Shown: positions 5,620 through 45,516 of the stretch, piece after piece
Position numbering within the stretch: position 1 is the first letter of the stretch
How the letters are laid out: every line of letters starts with the position of its first letter
Assembly: GCA_963674705.1 (NCBI GenBank)
Contig: OY771506.1
Span: forward strand, 4,800,001-4,864,000
Direction of reading: 5' to 3'
Origin: Phycisphaeraceae bacterium
GTDB taxonomy: Bacteria; Planctomycetota; Phycisphaerae; Phycisphaerales; Phycisphaeraceae
DNA: 64,000 nucleotides
The notes under the pieces: generated by a model
What the model was told of the DNA's origin: nothing
The model's input: the letters and a program-made list of their open reading frames with translations, nothing else
The model's database searches: none
Made by a program: the position numbers and the translations under genes

Positions 5620-5649
5620 TGACCTCACCCCACACAAAGGGTGAGGTCA
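5620..5649. repeat. Inverted repeat TGACCTCACCC-8nt-GGGTGAGGTCA; arms match the tRNA-Ile sequence 3' of the anticodon loop
   Basis: 11-bp perfect arms read directly; degenerate homolog at 45155-45184 at nearly the same distance from the tRNA fragment. Confidence 0.8.
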
Positions 5650-5819
5650 TAAGATAAGAGTGCAATGTGTATCACATGGACTATATATAGATTGCCCCGC
5701 CAACAGCACAACTTGAACGGATTCGCAAAACGGTAGAACGACGGTCAATACGGTCAACCATATTCACAAGTGCGCCTTCACCTATTCTGTAAAACTGAGA
5801 TCATACAAACAGATGCAAA

Positions 5820-5862
5820 TGGGCCCGGCAGGGCTTGAACCTGCGACCTCACCCTTATCAGG
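5820..5862 (-). repeat. tRNA-Ile(GAU) 3' fragment, att-like site, copy 1
   Basis: Minus strand reads CCTGATAAGGGTGAGGTCGCAGGTTCAAGCCCTGCCGGGCCCA: anticodon loop CTGATAA, T-arm GCAGG-TTCAAGC-CCTGC, 3' acceptor strand; no D-arm or 5' half. Confidence 0.9.
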
Positions 5863-5917
5863 CAAACACCCGCAAAACACGTAAGCCAATTACACACAGC
5901 ATCTTAACCCCAAATCA

Positions 5918-5973
5918 CACTTTCGCAATTCTTCGCATTCTTTCGCATTTTGTCGCGTTTTTTCGCGGTAACC
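5918..5973 (+). repeat. Five tandem 10-bp units (consensus TTCTTTCGCA) ending in GTAACC
   Basis: cactttcgca-attcttcgca-ttctttcgca-ttttgtcgcg-ttttttcgcg-gtaacc. Confidence 0.9.
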
Positions 5974-6290
5974 CCATCACTTTTTCGCTTAAGTGAAGGA
6001 GATACTTTCTGCGGTTTCATCGCAATATACCGCCATGGCATCGAGTTAAAAAGTACCACCAACTACTAACAGACGCATGAAGATATGCCCTTCCACGGCC
6101 AGCAGCACAGGTCAGGATCAGCTAAATGAACACCAACATAAAATACCCTTAATCCCAGTTTCCCTACCCATCCGGTTCGTTATCGTGCTTCGATTAGTGT
6201 GGCCTGATCAATCCACACTGCCCCCCGCCCCCCAGCCGGACGTTGGAATTGGAACGTAACCTGTGGTCTTGACCCCGTCCTTGGCCCACG

Positions 6291-7151
6291 TCAAGTGCAA
6301 CTTGTACAGTGTAACTCAGGTTGGGTTGGCGGTGGAGGCGCAGCCGGAATCGCCACCCCAACCTGAGCCACGAACTGCTCCGGGGTCTGATTCTTCAGGC
6401 TGCTGTGCGGACGCACCGCGTTGTAATCATTACGCCAAGCCTCGATCTTTTCGCAGGCGTCGTTCAGGCTCAAGAACCAATGTGTATTCAAACACTCCTG
6501 GCGGAATCGCGCGTTGAACGACTCGATCGTCGCGTTCTCAGTCGGCTTGCCGGGCCGGCTGAAGTCCAGCTTCACGTTGTTCCAATACGCCCATAGGTCC
6601 ACGTCCTTCGAGATAAACTCCGGGCCGTTATCCACCTGGATCGACGACGGGAATCCGTGCTCCGTTGCCACGCGCTCCAGCACCTCGACCACGTCGATTC
6701 CTCGGACACGTGGAGCCGCGTGTAGCGCCAACGACTCTCGGGTACAGTTGTCAACCAGCGTGAGTACCCGGAACCGCCGGCCATCGAACAGTTGATCCGA
6801 CACGAAGTCCATCGACCAACGCTGGTTCTTCTTCTCCGCCGTCGGCAGCACTTCACGTTTTACGCACGCTACACGGCGTCCGGGCACCTTCTTACGCATG
6901 ACCAGGCCCTCTTGCTTGTACAACCGGTACACCCGCTTGGCGTTCACCCGCCAGCCTTCGCGTCGAAGCAGCACATGCAACCGACGGTAGCCGTACGCCA
7001 CGCGCGTTTCGGCCAGTTCCGGCAACCGACACCGAAGCGCCTCCTGCGGCGACTTCACCGATAAGTACCGAACCGTTGATCGTCCAACCCCCAACGCATC
7101 ACATGCCCGCCTCTCGCTGACCCGGTAAGCCACTATCGTTCGGCCCACCAA
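6291..7151 (-). CDS. IS3-family transposase OrfB (DDE)
   Basis: YGYRR, WSMDF, VDNGPEF, IESFNARFRQECL, YNAVRPHSSL. Confidence 0.92.
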   Translation of the reverse strand: MVGRTIVAYRVSERRACDALGVGRSTVRYLSVKSPQEALRCRLPELAETRVAYGYRRLHVLLRREGWRVNAKRVYRLYKQEGLVMRKKVPGRRVACVKREVLPTAEKKNQRWSMDFVSDQLFDGRRFRVLTLVDNCTRESLALHAAPRVRGIDVVEVLERVATEHGFPSSIQVDNGPEFISKDVDLWAYWNNVKLDFSRPGKPTENATIESFNARFRQECLNTHWFLSLNDACEKIEAWRNDYNAVRPHSSLKNQTPEQFVAQVGVAIPAAPPPPTQPELHCTSCT

Positions 7152-7171
7152 GTTACGCCTGGAGGCGGGCT

Positions 7172-7435
7172 TCAGAGCTTTCCCTTGAGGGCATCCTGAA
7201 GGATGTGCTTGTCTAGTGACAGGTCCGCCACCAGCTGCTTGAGCTTGCGGTTCTCCTGCTCCAACTGCTTGAGTCGACGCATCTCAGACACGCCTAGCCC
7301 GTCAAACTTCTGCTTCCAGCGGTAGAACATCGCCTCGGAAATACCCATCTTCCGCACGACCTCACTGACCGCCGTGCCCGACTACGCCTGCCGTAACGCG
7401 AACGCGATCTGGGCTTCCGTGTGTCGTTTCATCAT
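7172..7435 (-). pseudogene. IS3 transposase OrfA interrupted by an in-frame TAG
   Basis: MMKRHTEAQIAFALRQA*SGTAVSEVVRKMGISEAMFYRWKQKF; TAG at 7384-7382 where GAG (Glu) would be expected. Confidence 0.85.
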
Positions 7436-7538
7436 CAGTTGCTCCTTTCTGGTGGCCTAACATCATCCAAAAAGTCGCATTCGATGTGGAGCAGATTCCC
7501 GGGTCAAGACCAAAATGGACCGTTTGACTCCTAAGGGA

Positions 7539-8447
7539 TCAATTCTTGGCAAATAGACGTCGTTGGGCAGCACGGGCGATCGAGACAACCGCAGGATGTT
7601 TCATACGTCGTTCCATGGATACAGCGTAAAATCGTTCAGTGACTTGCGGGACTTCACCGATCGGTTTCACGCCGTACTGTTTCTGAATTTCATCTACGAT
7701 AGCGGTTGGCCCCGGGAAAACGCCAGCCCCCTGATGCCCGAATACTTTCAGAAGCGCGGTATCCTCAAACTCGGCCCGGATCAATGGGCTGATGTCTTCA
7801 TTGTCGAACCAAAGATCAAGCGCCCGCCGTACGAGTGTATTGGGTGTAGGCAGAAGTACCGGCGCCCCATCCAGCGATTGTGGGAATCGGCGGCGGTAGC
7901 GAGGCGCCACATCCGGCTGAGCAAAGAAGGTAACCGTACACTCGCCCAGTGCGTGGTTATAAGCCCGGACGCCAGTGTCAGCGGTGGCTGGGCTTTCAGT
8001 AATGACCACATCCAGTTCGTGGATCGCCAACTGAGCCAGGAGTTGTGTGGGTTTGCCCTCGTAACAGATCATGCGTACCGGCTCGGGTATCTCCAAGGCG
8101 GGTGCCAGCAGCCGCTGTGCCATCATCTTGGGAACCACGTCTGCGATCCCCACCTGGAACCGTAGCGGGCTGCCCGCCGGCCGGCCCTTGAGTGTGTCCA
8201 TGAGGTCCTTGCCGATCGTAAATATCTCATCAGCGTATCGGTAGACGACCTGTCCGGTATCGGTCAGCACCAGCCGTCGGCCGGAACGCTCGAAAAGCGA
8301 GTGTCCCAGCGCCAGCTCGAGTTTGCGTAGCTGAGCGCTGACGGTGGGCTGGGTCACATTCAGCTCCTCACAGGCGGCGGCGATCGACCCGGCCCGAGCG
8401 ACTGTCCAGAAGTACAGCAGGTGGTGGTAGTTAAGCCAATCTAGCAT
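7539..8447 (-). CDS. nhaR: LysR-family transcriptional activator NhaR
   Basis: LNYHHLLYFWTVAR N-terminus, GIADVVPK, EFEDTALLKVFG, ERRMKHPAV are characteristic of NhaR. Confidence 0.88.
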   Translation of the reverse strand: MLDWLNYHHLLYFWTVARAGSIAAACEELNVTQPTVSAQLRKLELALGHSLFERSGRRLVLTDTGQVVYRYADEIFTIGKDLMDTLKGRPAGSPLRFQVGIADVVPKMMAQRLLAPALEIPEPVRMICYEGKPTQLLAQLAIHELDVVITESPATADTGVRAYNHALGECTVTFFAQPDVAPRYRRRFPQSLDGAPVLLPTPNTLVRRALDLWFDNEDISPLIRAEFEDTALLKVFGHQGAGVFPGPTAIVDEIQKQYGVKPIGEVPQVTERFYAVSMERRMKHPAVVSIARAAQRRLFAKN

Positions 8448-8578
8448 TTTCGACTCCCTGCGACCCGAATGATTGCGGCCACATATACATAGATTTTATC
8501 TATGAATTATATCATTGTTTCGTTATTGTCAATGTGGCCACCGAGGCTAATCTTCTGGTAAATGAATAGGAGTCAGGT

Positions 8579-8944
8579 ATGCGAGTCGAGATAGAGTCAC
8601 GAGAAGTCGCGGTCACAAGCCAGCAACGTCAGCGTTTCGAGCGGCAATTGACCTACTCACTGAGTCGATTCGACCGTCTCATACAACGCGTCATGGTGAG
8701 TATCGAACGACTCAGGGGCCCCACAGGCGGGCTTGATCATCGATGCCGTATACAGGCAAAACTGACAGGACGGCTGACGATAGTCGCGGATGTAAGAGAT
8801 GTGAGTCTGGAACACGTTCTGCACCGGGCATCGGCCCGGGTGGCACGAAGGTTGAGAGAAAAACTGAACAGCCAGGCCGAGAAGTACAAAGCGCATCCTG
8901 TGCCGCCCGGCTCCCCTGAGGTGATCTGGATCAGTGAATTTTAA
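8579..8944 (+). CDS. HPF/RaiA-like (S30EA fold) small protein
   Basis: LSRFDRLIQRVMV...GPTGGLDHRCRIQA pattern; AGGAG RBS; divergent from nhaR. Confidence 0.7.
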   Translation: MRVEIESREVAVTSQQRQRFERQLTYSLSRFDRLIQRVMVSIERLRGPTGGLDHRCRIQAKLTGRLTIVADVRDVSLEHVLHRASARVARRLREKLNSQAEKYKAHPVPPGSPEVIWISEF

Positions 8945-9001
8945 TGAGAATGGTTTGAGACTGTCTTACTGAACGCAAAGCAAGTGAATTGGAGATCAAC
9001 G

Positions 9002-9832
9002 ATGAAGGTCAAACGCATCCTGCTCGGACTGGGCGGCACCGACTACACCCCGGTAGCCATCCAGCATACGGTCGAACTGGCCCGGTTACACGGTGCAGAG
9101 GTTACTGCTGTAACGGTGGTGGATGAATCCCGGCTTACGAATGTGGGCCCGGTGCCGGTGGGCGGTGCGGCCTTCGTAAAAAGGATGCGTGAAAAGCGGA
9201 TAGAAGTAAGCCGTGAGCGTATCGAAGAGGCCATCGAATACTTACAGAAGAACTGTGCGGCCTATCGGGTTCCCTATGAAGTATTGCATGAGAAAGCCGA
9301 ACCGTTCACGCAACTGGCGAACCTCGCACGTTACCACGACGTGATGGTTTTTGGTCTGCGCAGCCTTTTCGACTGCGGCTTTGGGGTGGACGCTCAAGAC
9401 ACGCTGACAAAGCTGGTGCAATACGGTGTCCGTCCGATTATTGCGGTCCCCAACACGTTCAGCCCCTTGCGGCGCGTGCTGCTGACCTACAGCGGGTCGC
9501 CCGAGTCGGCGAAGGCGATCAAACGGTTCATACAGTCCGGGCTCTGGCCTGAAATCCAAATGAAGCTGTTGACATGCGGCCCGAACAAGCATGAGGCAGA
9601 AGCCTTGAACGAGCAGATGGCCCGTTACTGCCGGTCTCACGGTTTCAATCCCGAAATTGAAGTCAGTTTAGACACGCCCCGGCAACGGATTCTTGAATCG
9701 GCCAGCGAATTCGATGCGGACCTGATCGTGATGGGCAACGGGATCCGCAGTTACTGGCTCGATCGACTGTTAGGTAATACCGCATTACACGTGGTGCAAC
9801 ATTCAACCCGCGCTCTCTACATGACGCAGTAA
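9002..9832 (+). CDS. Universal stress protein (tandem Usp domains)
   Basis: KRILLGLGG N-terminus, RRVLLTYSGSPES, ADLIVMG...LLGNTALHVV. Confidence 0.88.
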   Translation: MKVKRILLGLGGTDYTPVAIQHTVELARLHGAEVTAVTVVDESRLTNVGPVPVGGAAFVKRMREKRIEVSRERIEEAIEYLQKNCAAYRVPYEVLHEKAEPFTQLANLARYHDVMVFGLRSLFDCGFGVDAQDTLTKLVQYGVRPIIAVPNTFSPLRRVLLTYSGSPESAKAIKRFIQSGLWPEIQMKLLTCGPNKHEAEALNEQMARYCRSHGFNPEIEVSLDTPRQRILESASEFDADLIVMGNGIRSYWLDRLLGNTALHVVQHSTRALYMTQ

Positions 9833-9849
9833 CCCACAAGGAGCACGCG

Positions 9850-10785
9850 ATGCCTTCCGACCTGGCATTGAAACATAGCGAGAAACTGATCTACGTCCGA
9901 GGCCGACGCGGCGGCGACCTCCCCTTTTCCAAGGGGCTGATGGCGACGAGCATCCTGGCGACCGGCATGGAAACGGGAACGGCCCACATGATCGCCGCCG
10001 GCATCGAGAAGCGTTTGCGGCAGGAGAAGCGGCGTGAGGTTGATGCCGATGAACTTGCGGCCCTGGCCGAACAGGCGATTGAAGTGCAAGCGGGTAAGGA
10101 CGCCGCCAACCGTTACCGCGCCTGGCGTCGTGTCAAGCGGGTAGGCCGACCGATTGTTGTATGTCTGGGCGGAGCGCCGGGTGTCGGAAAGTCCACGGTC
10201 GCAACGAGATTGGCGTTGCGATTGGGTATCAACCGTGTGGTGCCGTCGGATGCTGTACGTGAAGTGCTTCGAACCGTTGTCCCCCAGACGGTCTTGCCTG
10301 AATTGCACGTCTCGACCTACGAAACGGTCGAGGGCGATCCCGCGATCGGCTGCTCGCTGACAAGCTTTCTCCGGCAGTCACACGCGGTCGGATCGGCTTG
10401 TGCGGCGATAGCCAGCCGGTTGACCGCCGAACGGCGTCATGTGCTGCTGGAGGGCGCCCACGTCCTGCCGGGCAAGGTCCGCGATCACCTCGAGCAACAC
10501 GGTTCTGATGCAATCGTGGTTGAAGTACTGCTAACGATCGACCAGGAAGACACCCACCGGGAACAATTAACCACAAGGCTTAGCCGAGAACCGGACCGTG
10601 ATGGCCAACGGCACCTGAAGCACCTGCCGGTGATACGTCTGCTTCAGGAGGAACTTCGTAAACGGGCACACAAGGCGGGTGTCGCCGAGCATGATATCCG
10701 GCACCCGGAGGACCTTACACAGCGCGTCGTCGATCTGATCATTGCGCAGATCGACGCAACAAAAACCCTGCCGAAAGCGATATGA
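9850..10785 (+). CDS. 2-phosphoglycerate kinase-like P-loop protein with N-terminal ATP-cone-like region
   Basis: LPFSKGLMATS N-terminus; LGGAPGVGKSTVATRLALRLGI; DAVREVLR; LHVSTY; LLEGAH. Confidence 0.78.
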   Translation: MPSDLALKHSEKLIYVRGRRGGDLPFSKGLMATSILATGMETGTAHMIAAGIEKRLRQEKRREVDADELAALAEQAIEVQAGKDAANRYRAWRRVKRVGRPIVVCLGGAPGVGKSTVATRLALRLGINRVVPSDAVREVLRTVVPQTVLPELHVSTYETVEGDPAIGCSLTSFLRQSHAVGSACAAIASRLTAERRHVLLEGAHVLPGKVRDHLEQHGSDAIVVEVLLTIDQEDTHREQLTTRLSREPDRDGQRHLKHLPVIRLLQEELRKRAHKAGVAEHDIRHPEDLTQRVVDLIIAQIDATKTLPKAI

Positions 10786-11387
10786 GGATGGAACAAGAGA
10801 TCGAATTATTAGTACTGGACGCACACGGGATCATCCTCAACGCGTATTGGCCGATCTTCCTGCACGAAGTTGCTCTGCATACAGGCGAGACACACGAGGA
10901 AGTGAACCGGCGTTGGCACGAACAGGTACGCGATGACGCGTGGTCCGGCCGGATCGATGACCGCGAACTGTGGCAACGCTTGACGCTCTGTGGCGCAGGA
11001 ACACATGATTGGCATGGGATCCTCGAATCCGGCTATGTAATCGGACCGGCAGCGCGGTATTTGTCGGCGTGGTCCAAGGCCGTCCCGCTCTGGCTGCTAT
11101 CGAACCATCGAACGCACTGGTTGCTGCCGCGTCTTAAGCGCTTTGGCTTGATCGGCCACTTCGACCGCGTGCTGGTATCGGACAAGATAGGCGCCACTAA
11201 ACCCGACCCGAGTGCGTTCCGGGAAGCGCTCGATCGCGTTGCAGAAACCAATCGGATTCTGTTCGTCGATGATCACAAGAGCAACGTCGCAGCGGCCGGT
11301 CGGCTAGGCATTCAAACCATATATGCCGAGCTCGACACGCCTTGGGAGAACCGTGTGGATGTATTGCTCGGTCTTCAGCCGGCCTGA
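10782..11387 (+). CDS. HAD-superfamily hydrolase/phosphatase
   Basis: LVLDAHGII, LLSN, KPDP, LFVDD motifs. Confidence 0.82.
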   Translation: MRMEQEIELLVLDAHGIILNAYWPIFLHEVALHTGETHEEVNRRWHEQVRDDAWSGRIDDRELWQRLTLCGAGTHDWHGILESGYVIGPAARYLSAWSKAVPLWLLSNHRTHWLLPRLKRFGLIGHFDRVLVSDKIGATKPDPSAFREALDRVAETNRILFVDDHKSNVAAAGRLGIQTIYAELDTPWENRVDVLLGLQPA

Positions 11388-11516
11388 ACCCCGGGTTCAC
11401 ACCGAATTAGACGAGCCGGGATACGACGCGTCGGCAAGCGACGCCAGGTAACTCGCCGCGCTTACGTTGTGTCACTAAGATAAAGATGATCCCCGTTTCC
11501 AACAAAGTTTTCAGCC

Positions 11517-13850
11517 ATGCTTTGGATGATCCTGACGCCCCTAATCGCCGCCAGCCTTGTGCCGTGGCTTTGCCGTAAGCTCGGCCGAACTACGGCATGG
11601 CTTGCCGCGTTGCTGCCGGGTGGTATCGCAATGCTTACCGTATTGCGTTTACCAATGGAGCCGGGTGAAGCGTGGTCGGTGTCGCAGCCATGGGTACCCG
11701 CGCTTGGTATCGATTTAGCGTTCAGGATGGACGGGCTATCGGCGGTGTTCGTAATCCTGATCAGCGGTATCGGGGCGCTGATATTGCTATACGCCGGCAG
11801 CTATATGAAAACGGATCTCGGCAGGCTGCTGGGACTGTTGCTGCTGTTCCTCGGAGCGATGCTCGGGATCGTGCTTAGCGATGATCTATTCGTTCTGTTT
11901 ATTTTCTGGGAATTGACCAGCGTCGCATCTTTCTTATTGATCGGATTCAAGCACGATCAGGAAGGCGCCCGCGCGTCGGCCAGGCAGGCCCTGCTGGTCA
12001 CGGGCGCGGGTGGACTTGCACTGCTGGCGGGCATCGTCCTCTTGACAATCGCCGCTTTGCAGAGCGGGCTTTCTGTAGGATCGGCGTCGAAGATATCGGA
12101 ACTCATCGGCTCTGACGTCTCGACGCACAGCCTTTTTTTGCCAGCCATGATCCTCATCATGATCGGTGCTTTGTCTAAGTCGGCCCAAGTGCCCCTTCAC
12201 TTCTGGCTTCCCGACGCGATGACCGCGCCGACCCCGGTTTCCGCTTACCTGCACTCGGCGACGATGGTTAAGGCTGGTGTCTATCTGCTGGCGCGTCTGA
12301 ACCCGTTGTTTGGCCATAGTGCGACGTGGCATGCCGTTCTTGTGGCAACAGGAGCAATGACCATGCTGATCGGCGCCTTGATCGCTGCGGGTCAGACCGA
12401 CATGAAACGTATACTCGCCTACACGACCGTCAGTGTGCTGGGCACGCTCACGATGCTCATAGGTATCGGGACGGACCTGGCAATCAAAGCCGCGGTTGTC
12501 TACCTCACCGCCCACGCGTGTTACAAAGCGGCACTGTTCATGATTGCCGGCAGTATCGAGTACGTAACCGGTACACGTGACATTGAGAAACTGGGCGGTT
12601 TGTCACGCGCCATGCCGATCACAGCACTTTCCGGCGCTCTCGCCGCACTAAGCATGGCAGGGGCGCCACCGCTGTTTGGATTTATCGGCAAGGAGCTGTT
12701 GCTCAAGGCCAAACTAAATCTCGACACGCTGGGTGTTGCACTGATCTGTGCGGCTGTCGTCGCGAATATCTTTCTGATTGCCATGGCGCTGGCCGTCGCG
12801 GCGTGGCCCTTCTTCAGAGAAAGAAAACAGTCATCACGCAACGCCCGAGAAGTTCGCCTGCCCATGCTCATCGGGCCGTTTGTGTTGGCCGTGGCGGGTT
12901 TGTTCGTCGGCGTGATCCCTGATGTATTCGACCGCACACTGGGCTCGGCGATAGCGTCGTCGATTGGTGGGCGCACGATCCTCATGGACCTGGAGCTGTG
13001 GCACGGCTTCAGTCCCGTCGCGCTGACAGCGCTCGGGATCAGCTTAGTCACGTTGGGCTGCGGTTTCGCATTGTTCCTAAAGCTTCGCCACTGGTTGGGG
13101 GCGATCAAGCGCATCGTCGGTGTGGCCGCCGTGTATGGTCCCGCACGGATCTATGAAAAGCTCTATACGGGTATCCTGACGTGTGCGGCCGTGATAACCC
13201 GTAAGACACAGACAGGAAAGCTCCGCCAGGACCTTCGGGTTATTCTCGTGTTCTTCGTGACACTGAGTGTTTACCCGCTAGTCCGCACAGGTTTGCCTGA
13301 ACCAGAGGTACTGGGTGATTTACTCATCACGGAAAGCGTGCTCGGTCTGGTGCTGCTGGCTGGCGCACTGGCGGCGGTCCACAGCCGCTCTCGTCTGTCA
13401 GCCATCGCACTTCTGGGGATTACCGGCGTGCTGATTGCTGTACTGTTTGGCCTATTCAGTGCACCTGACCTCGCTATCACTCAGATTATGGTCGAGGCCT
13501 TAACGGTAGTATTACTCGTACTCACCTTCTATCGGCTTCCGAAGTTCGCAGCATTCCGTGAACGATCCGTACGTTGGCTTGATGCGATCATCGCTTTGGC
13601 GGCCGGCGCCGTGATGGCCACGATGCTCTATCAATCGTCGCTAGTTAGGCTGCCCGCTTCAGTGAGTGAAAAGATGGCCTCGCTAGCCCGCCCCGAAGCC
13701 CATGGGCGTAACGTTGTGAACGTGATCCTCGTGGACTTCCGTGCGCTGGATACACTCGGTGAAATTACCGTAGTCGCGATGGCAGGGCTGGGTGTATTCG
13801 CGTTAATCCGGACGGGACGATCCGCCCGTGCTAAAGGGGGTGAAGCGTGA
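11517..13850 (+). CDS. mrpA: Mrp/Mnh Na+/H+ antiporter subunit A
   Basis: [66 protein letters not shown]. Confidence 0.95.
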
Positions 13851-14257
13851 ACGCGATTGTGTTCCAGACGACAGTACGTTTCGTGACCCCGGTGCTGTTG
13901 CTTTTCTCGATCTTCATGCTGCTGCGCGGGCACAACGAACCGGGCGGGGGCTTTATCGGTGGGCTTCTGGCCGCCACCGCCTTCGTGCTTTATGGGCTGG
14001 CGTTCAGCATGGATCGTGTCAAGAGTCTGCTTCGTGTGTCGCCACCCACTCTCATCGGCATCGGGCTGCTGCTTGCCGTCATCAGCGGCTGTGTCGCGTT
14101 GATAGCAGGTCAGCCCTTCATGTACGGACTGTGGCTTGCGTGGGAGTTGCCCCTCGGACTTAAGGCCGGAACCGTGTTGCTATTCGACGTGGGGGTGTTT
14201 CTGGTTGTTCTGGGTGCGGTACTGTTATTCATCATCAGCTTGAGCGAAGAATCATGA
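13847..14257 (+). CDS. mrpB: Mrp antiporter subunit B
   Basis: [25 protein letters not shown]; overlapping start/stop. Confidence 0.95.
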
Positions 14258-29207: not shown

Positions 29208-29288
29208 GCTTCACCTATCTTGCATGCAACATCGCCGCAAACACACATATCAGATCATTATTACAAACTGTCATGCATTCATGCGATG

Positions 29289-29327: not shown

Positions 29328-29351
29328 GTGATTATCGCAAATCGCCTAATA

Positions 29352-34542: not shown

Positions 34543-34565
34543 TGATTTGTGCTTCCTAGTCAAGT

Positions 34566-35621: not shown

Positions 35622-38114
35622 TCAGCTTAAGCAGTCGTACTCTCTGATGTCTATAGAACGAGTCGTATTCCTCCGATGTTGCAACGCAATCGTGCCAATG
35701 ACCAGCAATGCGAGGCTGGACGGCTCCGGGATGTCTGTGTAACTACTTATCGGGATACTTGTGTTCCAGTTGTTCAGCACGATATCCAAGTCATCCAGAC
35801 CTACGAAACCGTCATCGCTTGGGTCGGCGGCTGAGTTGGCAGGCGGGATGGCTTGATTCCAGTTAGTAAGGATAATATCAAGATCGTCTAGGCCGACATA
35901 ACCATCGCCGTTCAAGTCACCGGGTAGAGATAAGACGTCAAGCACAGTGATGCGGAGCATGTTGGACAGGTACTCGACGTTCAGCAGCAAGTCCGTGCAG
36001 ATTACATTGTCAAAGTTGCCGATGAACGAGCCGGAGCTGAGCAGGACGATGAAAACCTCTCCGATCTTCGGGGCGGCACCGATCACGTCGATTACGAGGT
36101 CACCATCAAGTGCGATGTTTTCCGCGAAGATCAGATCGGCGTCGCCGCTTGTCATCTCGATGTTGAGTGTGCCGGTATCGAGTTGTTCAAAGTTGCCTTG
36201 GAGCGTCAGGGTCCCGAGGCTGTCTTTGCCAGCGACTTCCATCGACCCGGTGAGATTGACGACGTCCGCGTCGAGCGTTCCGTCGATCGAGTCGGCGAGC
36301 GGCAGATCGAGTGCGGTCGCTGTGTCGCTGATCACGATACCGGTGTGCCTTTGCTGTACACCATCGTGCGTCACCGTAACGTTATGCATGCCCTTGAAAC
36401 CACGTATTGTCCCGCTGCCGATGGCATCAGAGGTCGATTGCTCATTGGTCCACCAGGCATCGTAAACCAAGTCGAGGTACGCCTGACCGTTGGGCTTGAT
36501 GGTCCAGTCGCTGTTAAAGAGCGCCGCGTCGGATCGCCAGTGCGCATCTTCCCACAGGCCCCATTGGATAAAAGCTTCGACCGCAGGATGCGCGAAAAGT
36601 GCAGTCATGACATCGGTCATATACTGGGCCTGCAGGTCCTCGTCGGTGGTGTTGAAGTCGAACTCGGTGATGTGGATCGGCAGGCCGAAGTCGTCGAACC
36701 GGTCAAGAATGGTCCAGATCTGCTCGGGTCCGGTGATCGAACCCTCATCGAAGTGGCCCTGTATCCCGATGCCTTCAATAGCGGCGTTTTGGTCGATGAG
36801 ATACTGGATCGTGCCCTCGTACTCCTGCTGGCTGGGTGTGTTGGTGCCTCCGCCGGAAGCGATGATACCGTATTCGTTCAGGTATAACTCGGCGTTGGGG
36901 TCGGCGGCCTTGGCGACGTTGAACCATTCGACCATCGCTTCGTCACCAAGGATGTCCATGAGGTCGTGGTTGGCTCTTACCTCGTTGATGACGTCCCAGT
37001 AGTCGACCTTGCCGGCGGTCGCGGTGGCGATTTCGTTGATGTGGTCGATCACATTCTGGGCAAGCTCATTTTCCAGCTCGATCTTACGACCGGTCAAGGT
37101 GCCTATGTCGTTATATTCGTCGATCTTCGCCTTCACTGTCGAGGGCAGGTTGCTGTAGCCTGGCCAGACTTGGACGTGACCGCGTGCGGTCATACCCTGG
37201 GCCTCGATCCAACTCAGTGCCGATGCTGCTTGGCTCTGGCTGAAGTTGGATCCCCATTCGCCCTCCCAAGCCGGCCACTTCAGCGTGTTCTCGAGTGTTG
37301 CGAGGTTGAACATCTCCTCGACCTTCTGCTTGTAGATCGTGTTGTCGGAGGTAGTGCTGTTGACCCGCCATGCGGCGACGGCCGTGCCCCAGACAAACTC
37401 ATGCTCGGTCATCTGCACGTCGACCTGCGCCCCCGCGACAGGTTCGTCGCATCTGAGGACGCGGTAACTCAGGTCGCCCTTGCGATATGTATCGATGTTG
37501 CTCTCGGCGGTGGTCCGCCACGTGGCATCGGATTCGGCACCGGGATACGCCGGGGGCGCTTCCACCGTGTTGGACACAGCGATGTTGTCAAAGAACATGT
37601 CAAACGGAACCGTCCCGCCGTACTCCCCAAGCAACTGCCACTTGGTGATGTTGCTCAGGTCTAGATTCTGCCAGTCGTTGACTCCGCTGGTGGGATTCGC
37701 GAGGGTCGTCGACGAAACAAGGTTTGTAAAACCCGAGGTCGACAGGTCCGACACATTAAATGTCCACTTGCCGGTGTTGCTGTTGGCATCGATCAGTTCG
37801 AGCGTGAATGTGTCGGTCTGGTTGGTGACGCCCGGAGCCATATCGACGGTGAACCGCCCGTCGGCGTAGGTACTCAGGTCCAGCGCGGAGTTAATCCCGC
37901 CGCCGCCCCAGCTGTCTGTTGTATCCTGGATGCGGATGAAACTCGACCCGGTCGTCTGAGTAAAGCCGGAGAAGGTGTAGTCGAAGCCGGTGCCATTAAA
38001 GGCCGAGAGTGTAATCTCGGCCCAAACCCGCGACTCTGTCATCGCAGGTATTATGAGCATACCGCAAACAATCAGCTGTGTGAGACGCAACTTCTTAGTG
38101 TAGAGCCCCAACAT
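35622..38114 (-). CDS. GH10 endo-1,4-beta-xylanase with N-terminal CBM-like domain, dockerin-like module and PEP-CTERM
   Basis: ENTLKW, RGH, WDVINE, LYLNEY, GIGIQGH, ITEFD; IPEP tail. Confidence 0.92.
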   Translation of the reverse strand: MLGLYTKKLRLTQLIVCGMLIIPAMTESRVWAEITLSAFNGTGFDYTFSGFTQTTGSSFIRIQDTTDSWGGGGINSALDLSTYADGRFTVDMAPGVTNQTDTFTLELIDANSNTGKWTFNVSDLSTSGFTNLVSSTTLANPTSGVNDWQNLDLSNITKWQLLGEYGGTVPFDMFFDNIAVSNTVEAPPAYPGAESDATWRTTAESNIDTYRKGDLSYRVLRCDEPVAGAQVDVQMTEHEFVWGTAVAAWRVNSTTSDNTIYKQKVEEMFNLATLENTLKWPAWEGEWGSNFSQSQAASALSWIEAQGMTARGHVQVWPGYSNLPSTVKAKIDEYNDIGTLTGRKIELENELAQNVIDHINEIATATAGKVDYWDVINEVRANHDLMDILGDEAMVEWFNVAKAADPNAELYLNEYGIIASGGGTNTPSQQEYEGTIQYLIDQNAAIEGIGIQGHFDEGSITGPEQIWTILDRFDDFGLPIHITEFDFNTTDEDLQAQYMTDVMTALFAHPAVEAFIQWGLWEDAHWRSDAALFNSDWTIKPNGQAYLDLVYDAWWTNEQSTSDAIGSGTIRGFKGMHNVTVTHDGVQQRHTGIVISDTATALDLPLADSIDGTLDADVVNLTGSMEVAGKDSLGTLTLQGNFEQLDTGTLNIEMTSGDADLIFAENIALDGDLVIDVIGAAPKIGEVFIVLLSSGSFIGNFDNVICTDLLLNVEYLSNMLRITVLDVLSLPGDLNGDGYVGLDDLDIILTNWNQAIPPANSAADPSDDGFVGLDDLDIVLNNWNTSIPISSYTDIPEPSSLALLVIGTIALQHRRNTTRSIDIREYDCLS

Positions 38115-38171
38115 ACAACAGCTCTCAGCAAATTTGACACCCGTGACTAATTTACGACCCGCTCAGATCAC

Positions 38172-39023
38172 TCAAGGATCGACGTATACGTTTTCAGCTA
38201 CCAGGCCATGATCGGTCGGGCCGCTGTAACTCACGGAAGCAGCGTGCCCGTCAGCAAACAGGAAGTTGCCCGAGTTGTCTCCGCCGTGGCGGAAGCGGAT
38301 CTGCCCCCAGTTGGACGTAGTGTCAGTGTTGTCGCCGACATCGACCGGCTGCGTGTAATCATAGCTCGAATCGCCGAGGAGGAAGTAGGGAGATCTGGCC
38401 CAGCCACTGTTATTCAGTGCGTAAATCACGGCGTTGGTATTCCAGCCGTCGTTGGGCTTCTGGGTTCCGTCGGCGACCAGGAAGATCTCCGAGGTGTTTT
38501 TCAGGGTGTGCAGGTTGGCCGGCTGCATGTAGTCGATTGGGTTCTTGGAAAGGTCGGCCTTAGTGATGTCAGGTATCAATCGGGGGTGGCTGGAATACTG
38601 CCGGATCCGGTTGATAGTGCCCGCTGAAGTAGTCTCCTGTACGATACCCGCAGGGCAGGCGTTGAACTCGGCCAGCCCTTCTTCCTGAGTGCCGGCCTGA
38701 CCCTCCTCCGCCCAAGTCTTCTCCGCCTTGCCCATGACATTCAAGATAAGTAGTGACCAATCAGTCCACTGATTAGTATTGTACGGCGCTCCGTTATTGA
38801 CCCCATACGGTGCCGAGCCGTCGTTTTGGTCGGCGTAAACAAACATGGCGACGCCCATCTGCCTCTCTCTGGAAAGGCACTGAACGCTCTGAGCCGTGCG
38901 CCTTGCCGCTCCCAGCGCGGGCAAGAGGATGCCAACTAGCAGAGCAATGATGGAGATGACCACCAACAATTCGATGAGTGTAAACCCGTCTGGGGAAGGC
39001 TTCGTCGCGTCAAATCGCATCAT
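38172..39023 (-). CDS. Prepilin-type / DUF1559-like protein with H-X9-DG motif
   Basis: [44 protein letters not shown]. Confidence 0.92.
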   Translation of the reverse strand: MMRFDATKPSPDGFTLIELLVVISIIALLVGILLPALGAARRTAQSVQCLSRERQMGVAMFVYADQNDGSAPYGVNNGAPYNTNQWTDWSLLILNVMGKAEKTWAEEGQAGTQEEGLAEFNACPAGIVQETTSAGTINRIRQYSSHPRLIPDITKADLSKNPIDYMQPANLHTLKNTSEIFLVADGTQKPNDGWNTNAVIYALNNSGWARSPYFLLGDSSYDYTQPVDVGDNTDTTSNWGQIRFRHGGDNSGNFLFADGHAASVSYSGPTDHGLVAENVYVDP

Positions 39024-39596
39024 TTACTCTCCAAGCTATGCACCGTGGTCCAAGATTCAGACGCCGCAAACACGGCCAACGGCGGATTCAATCAGGGCAG
39101 CCCTTGCAGACACGGGCTCAAGGTTCAACACCCCTGCAGGTCACATCAGGGGCTCGAGTAAGTGCTTCGATAATATGAGACCGGTTTCATAAATACAACA
39201 CCCATTTTACGATAATCTCGCATGTCAACGACGGCATGCAATTTCAATAAATTATTAATATATATTTATCAGATGTTTAAATATAATAAAAGAAATATTT
39301 GGCTTGTGTCGGCTTGGCGTCTGTTGGACCCACTATTGCACAGGCGGGGGTATAAGCCATTAATACCTGTATTTAAATAATTTATATATCAATAAAACGC
39401 AAATGACGTGGTCAGCCATCTTTTACATGACAAATGGCAGCCAGCCAAGTCCTGTGATTCGAGACCGTGTTGCAGAAAAAGATCCCATCCACAAGCCAGA
39501 TTGTATCAACTATTAATATCTATATATAAATAAGATATGTGTTTTCTGGCCCAGGATCTGAATCCCCAGTAATCCCGGAATCTACTGAAAAAGACC

Positions 39597-39637
39597 TTGA
39601 CATTGTGTTTGAGTCAGTTAAAGTGCAAGCGATTGCA
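39597..39637 (+). promoter_or_regulatory. Sigma70-like promoter with overlapping LacI-type operator
   Basis: TTGACA (39597) -16 bp- TAAAGT (39619); near-palindrome TGCAAGCGATTGCA at 39624-39637 with central CG. Confidence 0.7.
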
Positions 39638-39699
39638 ATTAATTGCCCGGCCTGACTATCCATATCAGGCCGGGATCACTTTCACGGAACCAGGTTGGA

Positions 39700-40737
39700 A
39701 TGACAGCCAAACAGCCAAATCGAAGGACAACCATTTATCAGGTCGCCGAGCGTGCGGGGGTATCCAGTTCGACGGTATCTCGTGCGCTAAACGGGGTCAG
39801 CAAGGAAAAATCCCAAGGCTCGGCCAGCCGTGCTCAACGGATCCGCCAGATCGCCGAGCAGATGGGCTACCAGCCCAACTGGCGTGCCCGGGTGTTCGCT
39901 GAAGGCAAGACGCGCAGCGTCGGCCTGCTCCAGCCCAGCGAAGACACCATGTTCAAGGGCGTCAACACGCAGATTGCAGCCGGTTTTGTCTCGGAACTCT
40001 ACAAGCACAAATACCACGTCGTTTTGATGCCCATCGGAGAAGACCAGGAGTGGCAGCAGACGTTCGACGAACAGCGGGTAGACGGCTACGCGATTATGCA
40101 GCAGCTCGACGAGGTCGAAGATGTCTGTGAGGCGATCGTACGGCACGACAGCCCCGCGGTTCTGATCAACAACACCGAAAACAGGAACTACCTGCCGCGG
40201 GTCTTGATCGATGACTACACCGGCATGCAGCTGGCGATTAGGCACCTGACGCTGCTCGGTCATTCACAGATCGGTTTACACCTCGGAACTCACTCACTCG
40301 GTCACTACAGTGTCCAAGAGCGTTTGCGGGGTTTTCAAGAAGCGATGGGATTTAAGTCAGGCGATGACTCCATGATCTGGCGTGAAGACGACCAATCGAT
40401 CATGCGACACCTTGGCAGAGGCGGATCCAACCGGCCCACCGCGGTCATCTGCTATTCCCATCAGGAGGCGATCCCGTTGCTGTACACCCTGAGCCAATTC
40501 GGGATTAAGGTTCCGCAGGACATGAGCGTGATTTCGTTCAACGACATCGAGTTCTCCGAGTACCTCAATCCCCCACTGACCACCATGGCCTATGACGCCG
40601 ATCGTGTCGGTCGTGTCTCAGCGCAGTTACTACTACGTCAGATCAACGAGAATGTAGACGGAATGGAACGTGAAACTGTCACCCTCAAGCAACACCTGAT
40701 CGTGCGCGGCTCGACCGGACCGGTGCCTCAGTCTTAA
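39700..40737 (+). CDS. LacI-family transcriptional regulator
   Basis: TIYQVAERAGVSSSTVSRALN, MGYQPN, VPQDMSVISFND, PPLTT, LIVRGST. Confidence 0.95.
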   Translation: MTAKQPNRRTTIYQVAERAGVSSSTVSRALNGVSKEKSQGSASRAQRIRQIAEQMGYQPNWRARVFAEGKTRSVGLLQPSEDTMFKGVNTQIAAGFVSELYKHKYHVVLMPIGEDQEWQQTFDEQRVDGYAIMQQLDEVEDVCEAIVRHDSPAVLINNTENRNYLPRVLIDDYTGMQLAIRHLTLLGHSQIGLHLGTHSLGHYSVQERLRGFQEAMGFKSGDDSMIWREDDQSIMRHLGRGGSNRPTAVICYSHQEAIPLLYTLSQFGIKVPQDMSVISFNDIEFSEYLNPPLTTMAYDADRVGRVSAQLLLRQINENVDGMERETVTLKQHLIVRGSTGPVPQS

Positions 40738-40821
40738 TCGACAAATGTGGAATCCGTCACTAGGGCGAACCCTTTTCTGCTTCATTTGGCAATAAGAATC
40801 ACTTACTGGAGGAGAGTCAAC

Positions 40822-41493
40822 ATGAACTTGGTCAAGAGTCTTATCAAGGTTTCCATCCCCTGCCTGGCTGCTTGCATCGCCTTACCGACCTACGGCTCCA
40901 TCGCCACGTTCGATGAGAATGTCCTGCCCACAAATCCCGAGAACGGCGCAGGCTCGTTTACTTTCGGCGATTACTCGGTCGCCGGGGCCGTGACAGTCAC
41001 CTCGTCGGGCATCGTGCTGGATGTGGTTGACAGCGACGGCAGTAACGGTGTGTTCGGTGGCATCGGCGTCGATTACATACAGCGAGATTTTGATCCTGCC
41101 GACGTCGACATCGAGCTGCGGCTGAAGATCCTTGAGAACAACGAAGCGACCCAAATCAAGATCCTCTATCGAGACCGGGATGATCCCGGGACCGCGGATC
41201 AGTTCCAGTTCACGTTCGATATCTCTTCGCTGACAACGGCTGATGGTTTTGTAACACTGACGCAAAACCTCCTCGCTCCCGGCCCCACCTACTTCCAGGC
41301 GGCGTCCGGCTACGCTGCCGGTGACGGCATCCAGAACCCCGGCTTCGACCAGTTCCAGGTCCAAGCGGGTTACGGCTCGGTCGGTCGACTCAACGTCGAG
41401 ATCGATTATGTCAAGCTTGTCCCGGAACCCTCCTCGCTGTTGGTCGGCTCACTGGTGAGTCTGGGTGTGCTTGCCCGTAGAAAGGTGCGCTAA
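40822..41493 (+). CDS. PEP-CTERM protein, single CBM-like domain
   Basis: GGAGGAG RBS; signal peptide; VPEP tail; homologous to both repeats of the next gene. Confidence 0.85.
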   Translation: MNLVKSLIKVSIPCLAACIALPTYGSIATFDENVLPTNPENGAGSFTFGDYSVAGAVTVTSSGIVLDVVDSDGSNGVFGGIGVDYIQRDFDPADVDIELRLKILENNEATQIKILYRDRDDPGTADQFQFTFDISSLTTADGFVTLTQNLLAPGPTYFQAASGYAAGDGIQNPGFDQFQVQAGYGSVGRLNVEIDYVKLVPEPSSLLVGSLVSLGVLARRKVR

Positions 41494-41590
41494 CTTCACG
41501 AATCCTGATGGTCGGGGCAGGCGTCTGCCACCTCTTTATTAAGACCTGCGTAATCTGATCGTACTAACACTTGGTAACCAATTTTGGAGA

Positions 41591-43021
41591 ATGGATATGA
41601 TTCAGAATGTTCAAACGACTCGCTGGGGCGCCGTCTTGGGTGTGGGCGTGCTTGCGTGTACCGCCTCACTAAGCAGCGCGGCCAATCTAGCGGTGTTCGA
41701 CGTGGACCTGTTCGATGCGTCGGGTTACACCTATACAGACTTCTCCCCGGCGGGGGTGGTCGATACGTCTAGCGGTTACATCAGCATCGATCTGCAGACC
41801 GACAGCGACGGCAACAACGGCCTGTTCGGTGGACTCGGGGCTGATGTCACCGCGTGGCCTGTCGACTTCGATCCCTCCAGCGCTCAGCTTGAAGTGACTC
41901 TCCGTGTTGATGCGACGAACGTCGCCTCCGAGTTCCGTGTCGTCCTGACCGACCTCGACGGGACCCTGAACGCCGAAGACTATCAGTTCAACTTCAATAT
42001 CGCCTCGGTCACACCCGGCTCGTTCGTGACACTTACTCAGAACCTGACCTCGCCCGGCCCGGTCTACAGCCAGACCACGTTCGGCTACGGGCCCGGTGAC
42101 GGCATCCAGAATTACGGTCTGAAAACCGTGCAGGTCCAGAGTGTCTTCGCGGGGACTGATCCGCTGGTCATCGACATCGACACCATCAAGATCGTTGATC
42201 CCGACGACCCGACCATCGCCCGGCTGGATGCCGCGACGTACGACGGAGCGTTTTCGAGTTTTACATTCGGTTCAATGAGTTCTGCGGGCGCAGTGGTTAC
42301 CACCAGTGGTAACATCGTAGTGGATGCCGAGTTGCAAGCCGGCGGCGACTTCCCCGGTACGTCGTTCGGTGGATTAGGTGTCGAATATGCAAACGTTGAC
42401 TTCGAAGCGACCGAAGCCGAACTGGTCGTCAACGCCAAGCTCCTGGCGAACAACGACGCCTCAACGTTCAACGTTCTACTCAGCGATGAAGACCCCGACG
42501 GCGCCGGGGATGATTTTATCTTCAGCTTCGATACCACCGACTTCAATACGACCGACTTCACCGAGGTCGTGATCCCACTGGGCAGCGGCTCGGAGTCGGG
42601 CGTCACGACGACGTACGGGCTCAACCCCGGCGATATGCTCCAGAACTTCGGCCTGATCAAGATACAGCTGCAGACCGAGGGGGCATCAGCGACCTCACGG
42701 CTGAACATCGAGATCGAAAGCATCGAGATCCGTGAGTTGACGGTAGCGAACTTGCCCGGCGACTTGAATGGTGATGGATTCGTCGGCTTGGACGACCTGG
42801 ATATCATCCTCACCAATTGGAACCTGAACGTGCCGCCGGCTGACGCCGCCGCCGATCCAACCGGCGACGGGTTCGTGGGGCTGGCTGATCTGGACATCGT
42901 GCTGAATAATTGGAACACCGGCACCCCACCCAGCGGCAGCGCTATCCCGGAACCGGCATCGTTTGCCTTACTAAGCCTCGGTGGCTTGGTGGTGCTGTGG
43001 CGCAGAGGATCATTCTCCTGA
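41591..43021 (+). CDS. PEP-CTERM protein with two tandem CBM-like domains and dockerin-like module
   Basis: FGGLG..DF...GD..QN[YF]GL repeated twice; GDLNGDGFVGLDDLD; IPEP tail. Confidence 0.85.
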   Translation: MDMIQNVQTTRWGAVLGVGVLACTASLSSAANLAVFDVDLFDASGYTYTDFSPAGVVDTSSGYISIDLQTDSDGNNGLFGGLGADVTAWPVDFDPSSAQLEVTLRVDATNVASEFRVVLTDLDGTLNAEDYQFNFNIASVTPGSFVTLTQNLTSPGPVYSQTTFGYGPGDGIQNYGLKTVQVQSVFAGTDPLVIDIDTIKIVDPDDPTIARLDAATYDGAFSSFTFGSMSSAGAVVTTSGNIVVDAELQAGGDFPGTSFGGLGVEYANVDFEATEAELVVNAKLLANNDASTFNVLLSDEDPDGAGDDFIFSFDTTDFNTTDFTEVVIPLGSGSESGVTTTYGLNPGDMLQNFGLIKIQLQTEGASATSRLNIEIESIEIRELTVANLPGDLNGDGFVGLDDLDIILTNWNLNVPPADAAADPTGDGFVGLADLDIVLNNWNTGTPPSGSAIPEPASFALLSLGGLVVLWRRGSFS

Positions 43022-43068
43022 TGCATAAGACACCTATGCTGATGGCACGTAAGAGATGTGCGAATCAT

Positions 43069-43102
43069 GCAGGCTGGCGAGGAGATATCTTCGCCAGCCT
43101 GC
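43069..43102 (+). terminator. Strong stem-loop downstream of the PEP-CTERM operon
   Basis: GCAGGCTGGCGA / TCGCCAGCCTGC 12-bp perfect stem; weak U-tract. Confidence 0.55.
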
Positions 43103-43189
43103 TGTATATGGTCATAGCGACGCTCTGCGTCGACGTCGTAAGAGTTCAAAACTCAGCCGACAGACAGAGCCACCTTTCAGCCGGTTTCT

Positions 43190-43528
43190 TCAGTCGTAAT
43201 CGATTGGCTTCTTGCCCAGATCAAGGACGAGGTCGCAGACTTCAACCTCAAACCACTCGAGGAAGTTCTTCAACGTCCGCCGCGGCGGCCAGACCTCCGG
43301 GTCGCGCATCCAGCTGTTGAGTTCTTCTTCGAAGATGGCCGGCCAAAGGCGACGCACGACTTTCTTGATGTCATGCGTATCCGCCACTTCATCGATCAGG
43401 ATGATCTTCGCTGGATGATGATCCGGGTCGTACTTCGGGCCGCCGTCATCAAAGGCATTCGCCCAATCGATGTAAGGCTGCTTCGGCCTGACCACCAATG
43501 CCGTGCGATTCAAGAACTCCATGGTCAC
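43190..43528 (-). CDS. Conserved-looking hypothetical passenger protein
   Basis: [16 protein letters not shown]...IFEEELNSW...WP..RT...FLEWFEVE; start overlaps the transposase stop. Confidence 0.75.
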
Positions 43529-44601
43529 GCCGCTGTGCTCCTGTGGTGATAGTACTTCAACATGCCGCCCAAGCGTTCATGACATTCGATCGGGCCGGAT
43601 GATGGGTTGACCTGATCGGAATCGAGCAGCTGATTGCCCATCCCCTGGTGATTGCGTTCGCGGTGATAGTGGGCGACGTATTCATCAACAGCATGGCGTA
43701 GATGGGCTTCGCCAATTGGGATCATCTGATCCAGGCACTCTTCCTTGATGGAGCGTATGAAGCGCTCGCAATAAGCGTTCAGATTGGGGCTCCTTGGCGG
43801 GAGCCGGACAGGGTTCACACCCGACCCCTCTAATGTCTCGCGAAACTCGTGGGTGAAGACCGGGTCCCGATCATGGATCAGAAATCGCTTATGCCGGAGG
43901 AATCCGTCGATCCCATCCGTGAGGTTGCGTGCGACTTGTATCATCCATGGGCCGTCGGGTTGCGGGCAGATACCTGCCACCTCAACGTGCCGTGTGGCCA
44001 GGTCCATCACGATCAGCACGTGATAACGAACCAGGCCACCGAGTGTCCAAACTTCCACCGTGAAGAAGTCGGCTGCCGCGAGGTGTTCCCAGTGCGCCTT
44101 GAGGAAAGTCTCCCAGCTTCCGCGTTTGCTTCGCTTGGGCGCCGGCTCAATACCCTGCGCCTTGAGAATCCGACCGATCGTAGTGTCACTGACCCGATGG
44201 CCCAGGTTTGATAGTGCGCCTTCGATGCGGTCGTAGCCCCAGTCCTTGTTCTCCGTCGCCATGCGCACCACCAAGGCCCGGATCTCTTTCATCACGCCCG
44301 GGCGCCCGGGTCCGCGGTTCTTGCTGCCATCGTACTTCCTGGCGATCAACCGTCGGTGCCAACGCAGCAGCGTATCTGGCGTAACGAGCGTGCCCAGTTC
44401 TCGCAATACTTTGCGCCCCAACCTCTTAGCTTTGGCTGCAAGCCTCCGCCGCTGGTCATCGGTGAAGCGCAGACGCTTCTCACCAAGCTGCTCACGCAGT
44501 ACCCGGTTCTCTTCTTTAAGGTAGTCAATCACAGACTGCTGGTGCCGATTGACCCAGCCCGACAACGCAACCAACACGAACAGCCACGGGCAGTAACTCA
44601 T
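43525..44601 (-). CDS. Integrase-core (rve) DDE transposase
   Basis: [58 protein letters not shown]. Confidence 0.92.
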
Positions 44602-45352
44602 CCCGGCTATTCTCCCCAACCGAAGCTTTGCAGGTTCGTCCCGAAAACAACGATAGATGCATCCGTTAATCTATTGATGCCAATGCACTTCTACGTCGGC
44701 TGTGTTTTGAACCCTTACGAGGTCATGATTTTAGCCATGCGATGATCGGCCGGATCCACAGGGCGTACGGGGTTCGAACCCATACTGAAGGAAAAATAAT
44801 GCGTAATCTGAGATACCTTTCTCAAGGCAAACTGGTATCCGGTTGCGGCAGTCATCTTCCCGATAAGTACTTGGATCGCTCGCTAGTCTGGCTCATTATC
44901 ACGTTATCATTGTGATATATCTGGCCAGACAATAGTTAAAGTTGCGCCAGTACGGATATACATGAAACCATAGCTTTGTAGTATGTACTCTGTCTCATCC
45001 GAGCAACCCTCACTGAGAGTAGCCGCATGACGCACGATGATTGATATAGCAGCGCAATCCTACAAAACGCTCGGTGCCGCCTACCACCCGCAACAACTGC
45101 CGAGTGACATGATGCGTATTGAAATCTTTTTCACAGCAAATACTACTGGTTGATGTTCTCACACCCCACACCAAGGGTGAGGACACAGATTAATGAACTA
45201 TTCGTATCAATAACCCATTGAACAGGTTACTTCGTCTTTGGCACATGATGGCAGATATTACAAACAGTAGAAAACGGTCAATCTGACCGCCCAACTTCTT
45301 CTTTCAATTTGATGTTGATTTTGTAATTACTGATCAAACAGAGACATGCAAA

Positions 45353-45395
45353 TGGGCCCGGCAGGGCTTGAACCTGCGACCTCACCCTTATCAGG
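45353..45395 (-). repeat. tRNA-Ile(GAU) 3' fragment, att-like site, copy 3
   Basis: 45346-45408 is identical to 5813-5875 (63 bp). Confidence 0.9.
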
Positions 45396-45450
45396 CAAAC
45401 ACCCGCAATACAGGTAAGCCACTTTACAGCAGCATCTTAACACCAAATCA

Positions 45451-45516
45451 CACTTTCGCAATCCTTCGCATTCTTTCGCATTCTTTCGCATTTTGTCGCA
45501 TTCCATCGCGGTAACC
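45451..45516 (+). repeat. Six 10-bp TCGC units ending in GTAACC
   Basis: cactttcgca-atccttcgca-ttctttcgca-ttctttcgca-ttttgtcgca-ttccatcgcg-gtaacc. Confidence 0.9.

Follow-up and report, generated by a model that had tools for sequence, protein, structure and literature searches.

A tRNA-Ile gene and its displaced 3' halves

The stretch analysed here (the window) comprises 64 kb of Phycisphaeraceae bacterium contig OY771506.1, bases 4,800,001-4,864,000 of a one-contig, 5.54-Mb genome that we label G000, and contains a series of junctions at which fragments of a tRNA-Ile(GAU) gene separate blocks of cargo genes (Table 1). An original prediction, made from the sequence of the window alone, had read these blocks as non-autonomous cassettes stacked serially at one tRNA gene. 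ARAGORN detects no tRNA gene inside the window; the intact tRNA-Ile(GAU) lies 2.1 kb past it on the minus strand, at the higher coordinates where it had been expected. We refer to the junctions as J1 (5818), J2 (26242), J3 (35303) and J4 (45351). At J1, J2 and J4 a 3' half of the tRNA lies on the minus strand, co-oriented with the intact gene, with identity to the intact gene region of 45/45 at J1 and at J4 (45351-45395; E 3e-16), and 41/43 at J2 (26242-26284, E 2e-12). At J1 and J4 the identity starts one base ahead of CTGATAA, the loop sequence, and at J2 it starts within the loop; this boundary supports the predicted crossover at the anticodon loop.

Each tRNA half is followed by a right arm, consisting of a ~58-bp linker and then an array of TCGC units with a 10-bp period. 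The right arms of J1, J2 and J4 are pairwise 65-89% identical (shuffled baseline 54%), with J1 and J4 the pair at 89%; left arms may be presumed. Arrays of at least four TCGC units at 10-bp spacing occur three times genome-wide (5923, 35306 and 45456), each at a junction, and J2 holds just two units. J3 is a TCGC array alone, its core lost, adjoining the 31-bp terminal repeat of an IS30-like insertion sequence (IS) remnant. The three fragments with linker and repeat, and the fourth remnant at 35303, were all in the original prediction and stand with the exact starts given above; its segment lengths of ~20.4 and ~10 kb agree with the J1-J2 and J3-J4 spacings (20,424 and 10,050 bp), while its ~8.3 kb stops at an IS and should be 9,059 bp. 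Two further decayed scars were detected by profile search on the same strand, at genome positions 4,761,428 and 4,714,848 (E 2e-10 and 3e-7, from a first profile whose training did not include them; a later profile was trained on them), such that spacings going outward from tRNA-Ile are 20.8, 10.1, 9.1, 20.4, 44.4 and 46.6 kb. Scattered, randomly oriented copies are not seen: all junction matches are co-oriented and at most 151 kb from one tRNA-Ile, with none elsewhere in the genome. In tandem islands and cis-mobilizable elements (CIMEs), too, displaced 3' fragments line up in one orientation behind an intact target gene.

Arm-type sites of lambda-family integrases are short direct repeats close to the core. 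Since the TCGC units lie ~60-115 bp from the core, they may likewise be arm-type binding sites for a recombinase or accessory protein. On the other side of the tRNA halves, the non-coding flanks after the J1 and J4 fragments are homologous over ~225 bp (local score 87, shuffled maximum 28), and the J4 copy used as query had no match in 143 family genomes; the J1 copy is probably the orphan left arm of an older island. This flank carries, ~170 bp from J1, a perfect 11-8-11 inverted repeat with a half-site equal to the tRNA-Ile sequence just 3' of the anticodon loop, and a degenerate copy occurs near J4 (45160-45189). The inverted repeat resembles a recombinase core site. Neither the junction pattern nor this hairpin had any match in viral contigs.

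Table 1. Features of the window and of its continuation to the tRNA-Ile gene, numbered from the first base of the window
Feature	Position	Strand	Remark
Non-coding flank after J1 fragment	5595-5817	-	Homologous to J4 flank
Perfect 11-8-11 inverted repeat	5620-5649		Half-site matches tRNA beside anticodon loop
J1, displaced tRNA-Ile 3' half	5818-5862	-	45/45 to intact gene region
J1 right arm, linker and five TCGC units at 10-bp spacing	5863-5972		Putative recombinase or accessory-protein sites
IS3-type element separating J1 arm from cargo	6264-7513	-	
LysR, HPF, Usp, kinase, HAD and Mrp Na+/H+ antiporter module	7515-17310	+	
SpoIIE, AhpC-like, fatty-acid desaturase and cyclopropane-synthase module	17441-26102	+	
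J2, tRNA 3' half (2 mismatches), linker, two TCGC units	26242-26362	-	
Cargo: repeat-bearing secreted, prepilin-type N-terminus, PEP-CTERM, peptidase-like and ankyrin proteins	26776-34563	-	
IS30-like element, internally deleted, 31-bp perfect terminal repeats	34566-35302	+	Occupies expected place of J3 tRNA half and linker
J3, TCGC array alone	35303-35359		
GH10 glycoside hydrolase	35622-38114	-	
Prepilin-type, LacI and PEP-CTERM block	38128-43136		98.3% to G004:4838104-4843110
IS (43137-44723) and older IS remnant	43137-44930	-	End ~420 bp from J4
Non-coding flank after J4 fragment	45130-45350	-	Homologous to 5595-5817
J4, tRNA 3' half (45/45), linker, six TCGC units	45351-45515	-	
tRNA-proximal segment	45529-64000		20,754 bp in total, extends past window
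IS remnant ending the segment	up to 66005		Beyond window
Orphan left arm	66006-66105		Beyond window; 96% to arm preceding truncated integrase of G004
Intact tRNA-Ile(GAU)	66107-66179	-	Beyond window

The tRNA-proximal segment encodes a Fic protein, an FAD oxidoreductase, an MGH1-like hydrolase, two GntR regulators, a solute symporter, LamG proteins and a DHDPS-like protein, and carries an IS3 copy (61901-63170). The Fic-family gene (45529-46689) adjoins the J4 arm, is split into two open reading frames (ORFs) in different frames, and has an 83% identical stretch in the related genome G006. The IS3-type element has 32-bp terminal repeats and appears to have expanded recently, as nine further genome copies are 99.6-100% identical. 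A coding motif that recurs at the C-termini of secreted proteins, which we take to be dockerin-like and for which no Pfam match was seen, has ~300 matches genome-wide, including 1913-2086, 4955-5134, 26861-27033, 35749-35918, 42758-42928 and 57678-57847 of the window. Elsewhere in the chromosome, 30 tRNA genes on one strand (G000:C1:622407-634804) include a second tRNA-Ile(GAU) and a tRNA-Ile(UAU), a kind of cluster described for Planctomycetes (PMC4807772), and ARAGORN reports two tRNA-Sec genes (G000:C1:708446-708537 and 1821572-1821664).

Integrases in G000 and at the orthologous tRNA-Ile

No tyrosine or serine integrase lies between the junctions, as had been predicted. G000 contains nine matches to the tyrosine integrase family PF00589, seven of them within ~2 kb of other tRNAs by coordinates. 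The nearest is 0.38 Mb beyond tRNA-Ile and none is within 0.37 Mb, leaving the primary site without the integrase that stands beside it in an integron. The single serine recombinase match is at 2.13 Mb, outside the region, and the search of G000 turned up no integrase adjoining a tRNA-Ile. Searches for remnants in the array with tblastn yielded none, whether the query was the fragment of integrase from the relative G004 described below or the nine resident recombinases; the best match of the latter (E 0.002, window position -81830) was stop-interrupted, was not recovered by profiles, and was dropped. Three profiles built from related integrases, run against 182,969 frame fragments, found no array remnant and one match at E 0.29. 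Segments devoid of integration genes are also what tandem islands and CIMEs show. Among 52 window proteins, Pfam detects no relaxase or conjugation gene of the kind expected in an integrative and conjugative element (ICE) or integrative and mobilizable element (IME).

Decayed integrases, which the original prediction had regarded as the mark of ordinary degenerate tandem islands, occur in relatives at the orthologous position (G004, G009 and G018) and were not found within the G000 segments. G004 is a closed genome of the same genus, 95-97% identical to G000 in the core beside tRNA-Ile. It has one 23.6-kb island, bounded by its tRNA-Ile on one side and by a same-type junction on the other. An ORF of 151 residues ~100 bp after this tRNA corresponds to the N-terminal third of a tyrosine-integrase family (E 3e-56 with the family's own profile), a full-length member of which matches PF00589 at E 5e-18. 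G000 keeps the arm that leads from tRNA to integrase in G004 (96% over 97 bp), and this match starts at 66006. The adjacent base, 66005, is where an IS right end falls, as aligned with a family end derived from two further copies; it lies ~20 bp ahead of the integrase ATG of G004. As judged from this alignment, the integrase at the G000 tRNA-Ile may have been lost through an IS-adjacent deletion. G004 also has, ~400 bp past its junction (L034 8600-8730), another repeat array built from a different unit, possibly the arm of another decayed island.

In G009 a mere 0.6 kb takes in the tRNA and its arm, a remnant of the integrase (E 1e-16), a right arm of TCGC type and a decayed 3' half, and in G018 an integrase remnant occupies the tRNA-Ile flank (E 4e-21); these are the two remnants found among ten tRNA-Ile flanks scanned besides that of G004. 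Thirty loci, G004 included, were fetched for the integrase family of the G004 ORF, and 24 had a tRNA gene in the flank. Full-length family members follow tRNA-Ile in G146, G145, G126 and G101, with a second integrase gene after a displaced fragment in G145, an ordinary tandem. The G004 comparison, for the tRNA-proximal end, and G009 fit a derivation by decay; the inner G000 segments are without remnants. At the tRNA, J4 and J3, the place where an integrase would be expected is taken by IS ends or remnants. Decay is most advanced in the two distal scars, the farthest of which is common to G004.

A right-arm model run over 144 genomes matched 14, four of them at E <1e-4. The TCGC arm is narrowly distributed: strong in G000, G004 and G009, weaker at a tRNA-Gly half in G008, and present on two metagenome contigs; five of seven metagenome matches to the junction pattern were without an arm and were discarded as chance. 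The G008 case is a 9-kb island at tRNA-Gly(GCC) (L127, G008:C34, 2797-11846) whose right arm is of TCGC type and whose genes match G000 at 1.632-1.639 Mb; no integrase was detected on it.

Mosaic cargo and a ~480-kb accessory region

The segments are mosaics, several with DDE transposases, and not the coherent cargo units that had been predicted. Pfam matches among the window proteins cover the Mrp antiporter, fatty-acid modification, glycoside hydrolases, regulators, PEP-CTERM proteins and DDE transposases. Content and order differ in a relative, in support of the original prediction. The Mrp module is found in the first island of G004 at 87% identity, 90 bp from a TCGC arm remnant, and in G000 the shared block ends mid-segment at 17310; the module that follows it (17441-26102) was not found in ten genus genomes. 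The 98.3% identical copy of the 5-kb block 38128-43136 lies 2.7 Mb from tRNA-Ile in G004, at an IS-rich locus with IS remnants and without tRNA or arm. Both blocks shared with G004 end inside segments or at IS ends (17310; 38128 and 43136), and movement of whole units is not seen in these data. Contigs of two other studies (runs X4 and X5) contain the 5-kb block with a different left neighbour; these may be from G004-like organisms and so do not serve as independent cases, and gaps in cover in X4 and X5 were given no weight. Among the ten genus genomes, several of which are incomplete, none was found to share a whole segment, the tRNA-proximal segment having been queried to 64000 only. A J2-to-J4 excision joint was not among the 15 listed of 26 joints in assembled contigs, which drop rare forms, and this is not evidence of absence.

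The region beyond the window is also accessory. The core side of tRNA-Ile matches in all ten genus genomes. The gene right after tRNA-Ile in four of eight genus loci maps to 4.384-4.387 Mb in G000 (that of G009 maps to 4.532 Mb, and three loci have no match within 1.5 kb). The interval between tRNA-Ile and this neighbour gene is 479 kb in G000 (G000:C1:4387000-4866107), or 8.6% of the chromosome, compared with ~527 kb in G004, 51 kb in G009, 12 kb in G003 and, in four relatives, <1 kb. G004 is collinear with G000 over each of four 20-kb pieces that were sampled, at 84-97% for the most part; G003, G008 and G009 largely lack matches to the three pieces that fall wholly inside the interval, and G007 has partial matches (67-74%) to one sampled piece. 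The region has a GC content of 54.6% (vs 56.8%) and is rich in prepilin-type N-termini (21 of 84, 7.3 expected). Pfam matches were obtained for 26 of 37 sampled proteins, mostly sugar enzymes, regulators and transporters, and include no ribosomal or replication genes. No junction scar was found beyond 151 kb from tRNA-Ile, and so only the proximal third of the region can be tied to tRNA integration. The size of this tRNA-Ile accessory region is the notable part of our results, and suggests that one tRNA hotspot may explain much of why this clade has a larger genome and a larger set of glycan-use genes.

Proposed tandem accretion, its rivals and known systems

We consider it likely that the junctions are scars of tRNA-targeting islands that accreted in tandem and later decayed to CIME-like segments. 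The co-oriented junctions support serial site-specific integration at one tRNA, a part of the original prediction that we retain. Islands, probably each with a tyrosine integrase, would have inserted serially at the tRNA-Ile anticodon loop, each insertion restoring the tRNA, displacing its old 3' half and moving older islands outward. Integrases would then have been lost, likely often by IS-linked deletion, and IS activity, along with homologous recombination, may later have reshaped the cargo inside segments. In their present state the segments would be immobile, or would move only upon arrival of a related integrase.

Several observations weigh against this history. The profile scan found no integrase remnant in any G000 segment, the left ends that follow J2 and J1 show no IS, and J1 is undecayed despite its fourth place in line. 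The left arm appears ancestral with G004, yet three extra junctions separate it from the shared Mrp module, and strict push-down at the tRNA therefore fails to explain the layout. The ~225-bp flank common to J1 and J4, which carries no integrase, likewise sits poorly with simple push-down. In the scan of 144 genomes, none of the TCGC arms was seen together with an intact integrase, the matches inspected for integrases being mainly those in G000, G004, G009 and G008:C34; among the weaker right-arm matches, L113 and L122 were covered by one profile scan. Finally, in a cognate-arm test that scored short repeats common to both island ends (non-cognate mean 8.1, maximum 11), the tRNA-Ile left arm and TCGC right arm had no common repeat (score 7), and results were negative for G000, G004 and G009. 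Four of seven control islands scored 12-17.5, above the non-cognate maximum, and three failed; a score of 14.5 for the G009 left and G004 right arms is one of 156 comparisons and a hint only. With no repeat common to the two arms, the G004 integrase is at most a candidate builder of these junctions.

Some of these points would be expected if the segments were non-autonomous cassettes that never had an integrase, defined by a common lineage-specific right arm and moved by an integrase in trans, or in cis from a visiting element. The missing remnants, the integrase-free left flank and closely similar right arm of J1 and J4, and their intact cores all fit, as does the G008 island, on which no integrase was detected. 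The TCGC arm also recurs in two junctions of one metagenome, and the Mrp module ends near such an arm in both G000 and G004, at different ranks. As no intact integrase was detected alongside the arm, mobilization in trans retains some probability. We nonetheless regard this account as unlikely: G000 has no helper integrase at a tRNA-Ile, the remnants in G004, G009 and G018 indicate that islands at this site did carry integrases, no whole segment was seen to recur among the ten genus genomes, and the segments are 9-47-kb mosaics. The integrase remnants of relatives and the blocks ending inside segments likewise leave little support for the integron-like platform, served in trans, of the original prediction. 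It is tempting to speculate that Phycisphaerae hold a pool of integrase-free cassettes with a common TCGC arm, loaded at tRNA genes by a visiting integrase, and that repeated loading at tRNA-Ile built the half-megabase sugar-use region, ~9% of the chromosome. We give this proposal little credence; if cassettes do load in trans, they would be a multi-gene counterpart of the integron.

It is still more doubtful that only some junctions record integrations in this lineage, the array having mostly been imported or rebuilt in blocks, with old junctions aboard, by homologous recombination with relatives and IS transposition. The left arm is at core level with G004 (96%, flanking core 95-97%) while cargo differs, the 5-kb block adjoins an IS remnant elsewhere in G004, and some blocks within the region are translocated or inverted between these genomes. 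Co-oriented junctions confined to 151 kb from one tRNA, with none scattered, require a site-specific origin even so, and block import modifies tandem accretion and decay more than it replaces them. That the repeats are an assembly artefact or chance is highly improbable: the genome is a single-contig assembly, but its junction copies differ from one another and have unique flanks, a contig of run X2 (which may be the source sample) spans J2 without differences, and junctions of this type are also present in G004, in G009 and on two metagenome contigs.

Accretion of islands followed by decay is a known process, to which the present array would add a well-mapped case in a little-studied group. 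The decay step is visible in it, as the integrase is truncated in G004 while in the sister genome G000 an IS end takes its place. A search of literature on Phycisphaerae or Planctomycetes, or on tandem islands, with tRNA terms did not bring up any account of this array; the search left aside most subscription papers and supplements. A close parallel is with CIMEs, tandem elements at one target gene in which decayed members have lost their integration genes and keep their attachment (att) ends, with chimeric internal att sites (PMC5704250). Here, in contrast, the segments are IS-remodelled, the cargo consists of sugar-use and stress genes, and no functional ICE or IME is adjacent, so that cis-mobilization would be without a resident driver.

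The ssrA islands of Dehalococcoides similarly include several tandem islands within ~100 kb of one RNA gene, with 3' direct repeats and an extra conserved motif, as well as a distal region that is syntenic, cargo-rich and free of island signatures (PMC3146451). Fifteen of those islands are without integration modules and many still have one; their target is ssrA and their enzyme a serine recombinase, whereas in our case islands would have targeted the anticodon loop of tRNA-Ile, relatives hold remnants of tyrosine type, and the region extends to ~480 kb. Tycheposon islands of Prochlorococcus resemble the array in that new elements push older ones inward, partial tRNAs and fragmented integrases accumulate, and most islands hold no complete element (10.1101/2020.12.28.424599); they differ in cargo and host, and hallmark genes of replication or packaging were not seen among the 52 window proteins scanned. 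In Alteromonas, additive flexible genomic islands share a conserved tRNA target and a variable number of cassettes, so that length differs by strain (PMC4119200); in the sections at hand, that account gives no arm anatomy.

With integrons the array has in common that cargo is stacked serially behind one fixed site. It differs in its multi-gene mosaic units and in having tRNA-derived att junctions as boundaries, and it fails the two integron tests applied, an adjacent integrase and whole-unit movement. The array works like the accreted, tycheposon-built and additive islands described above.

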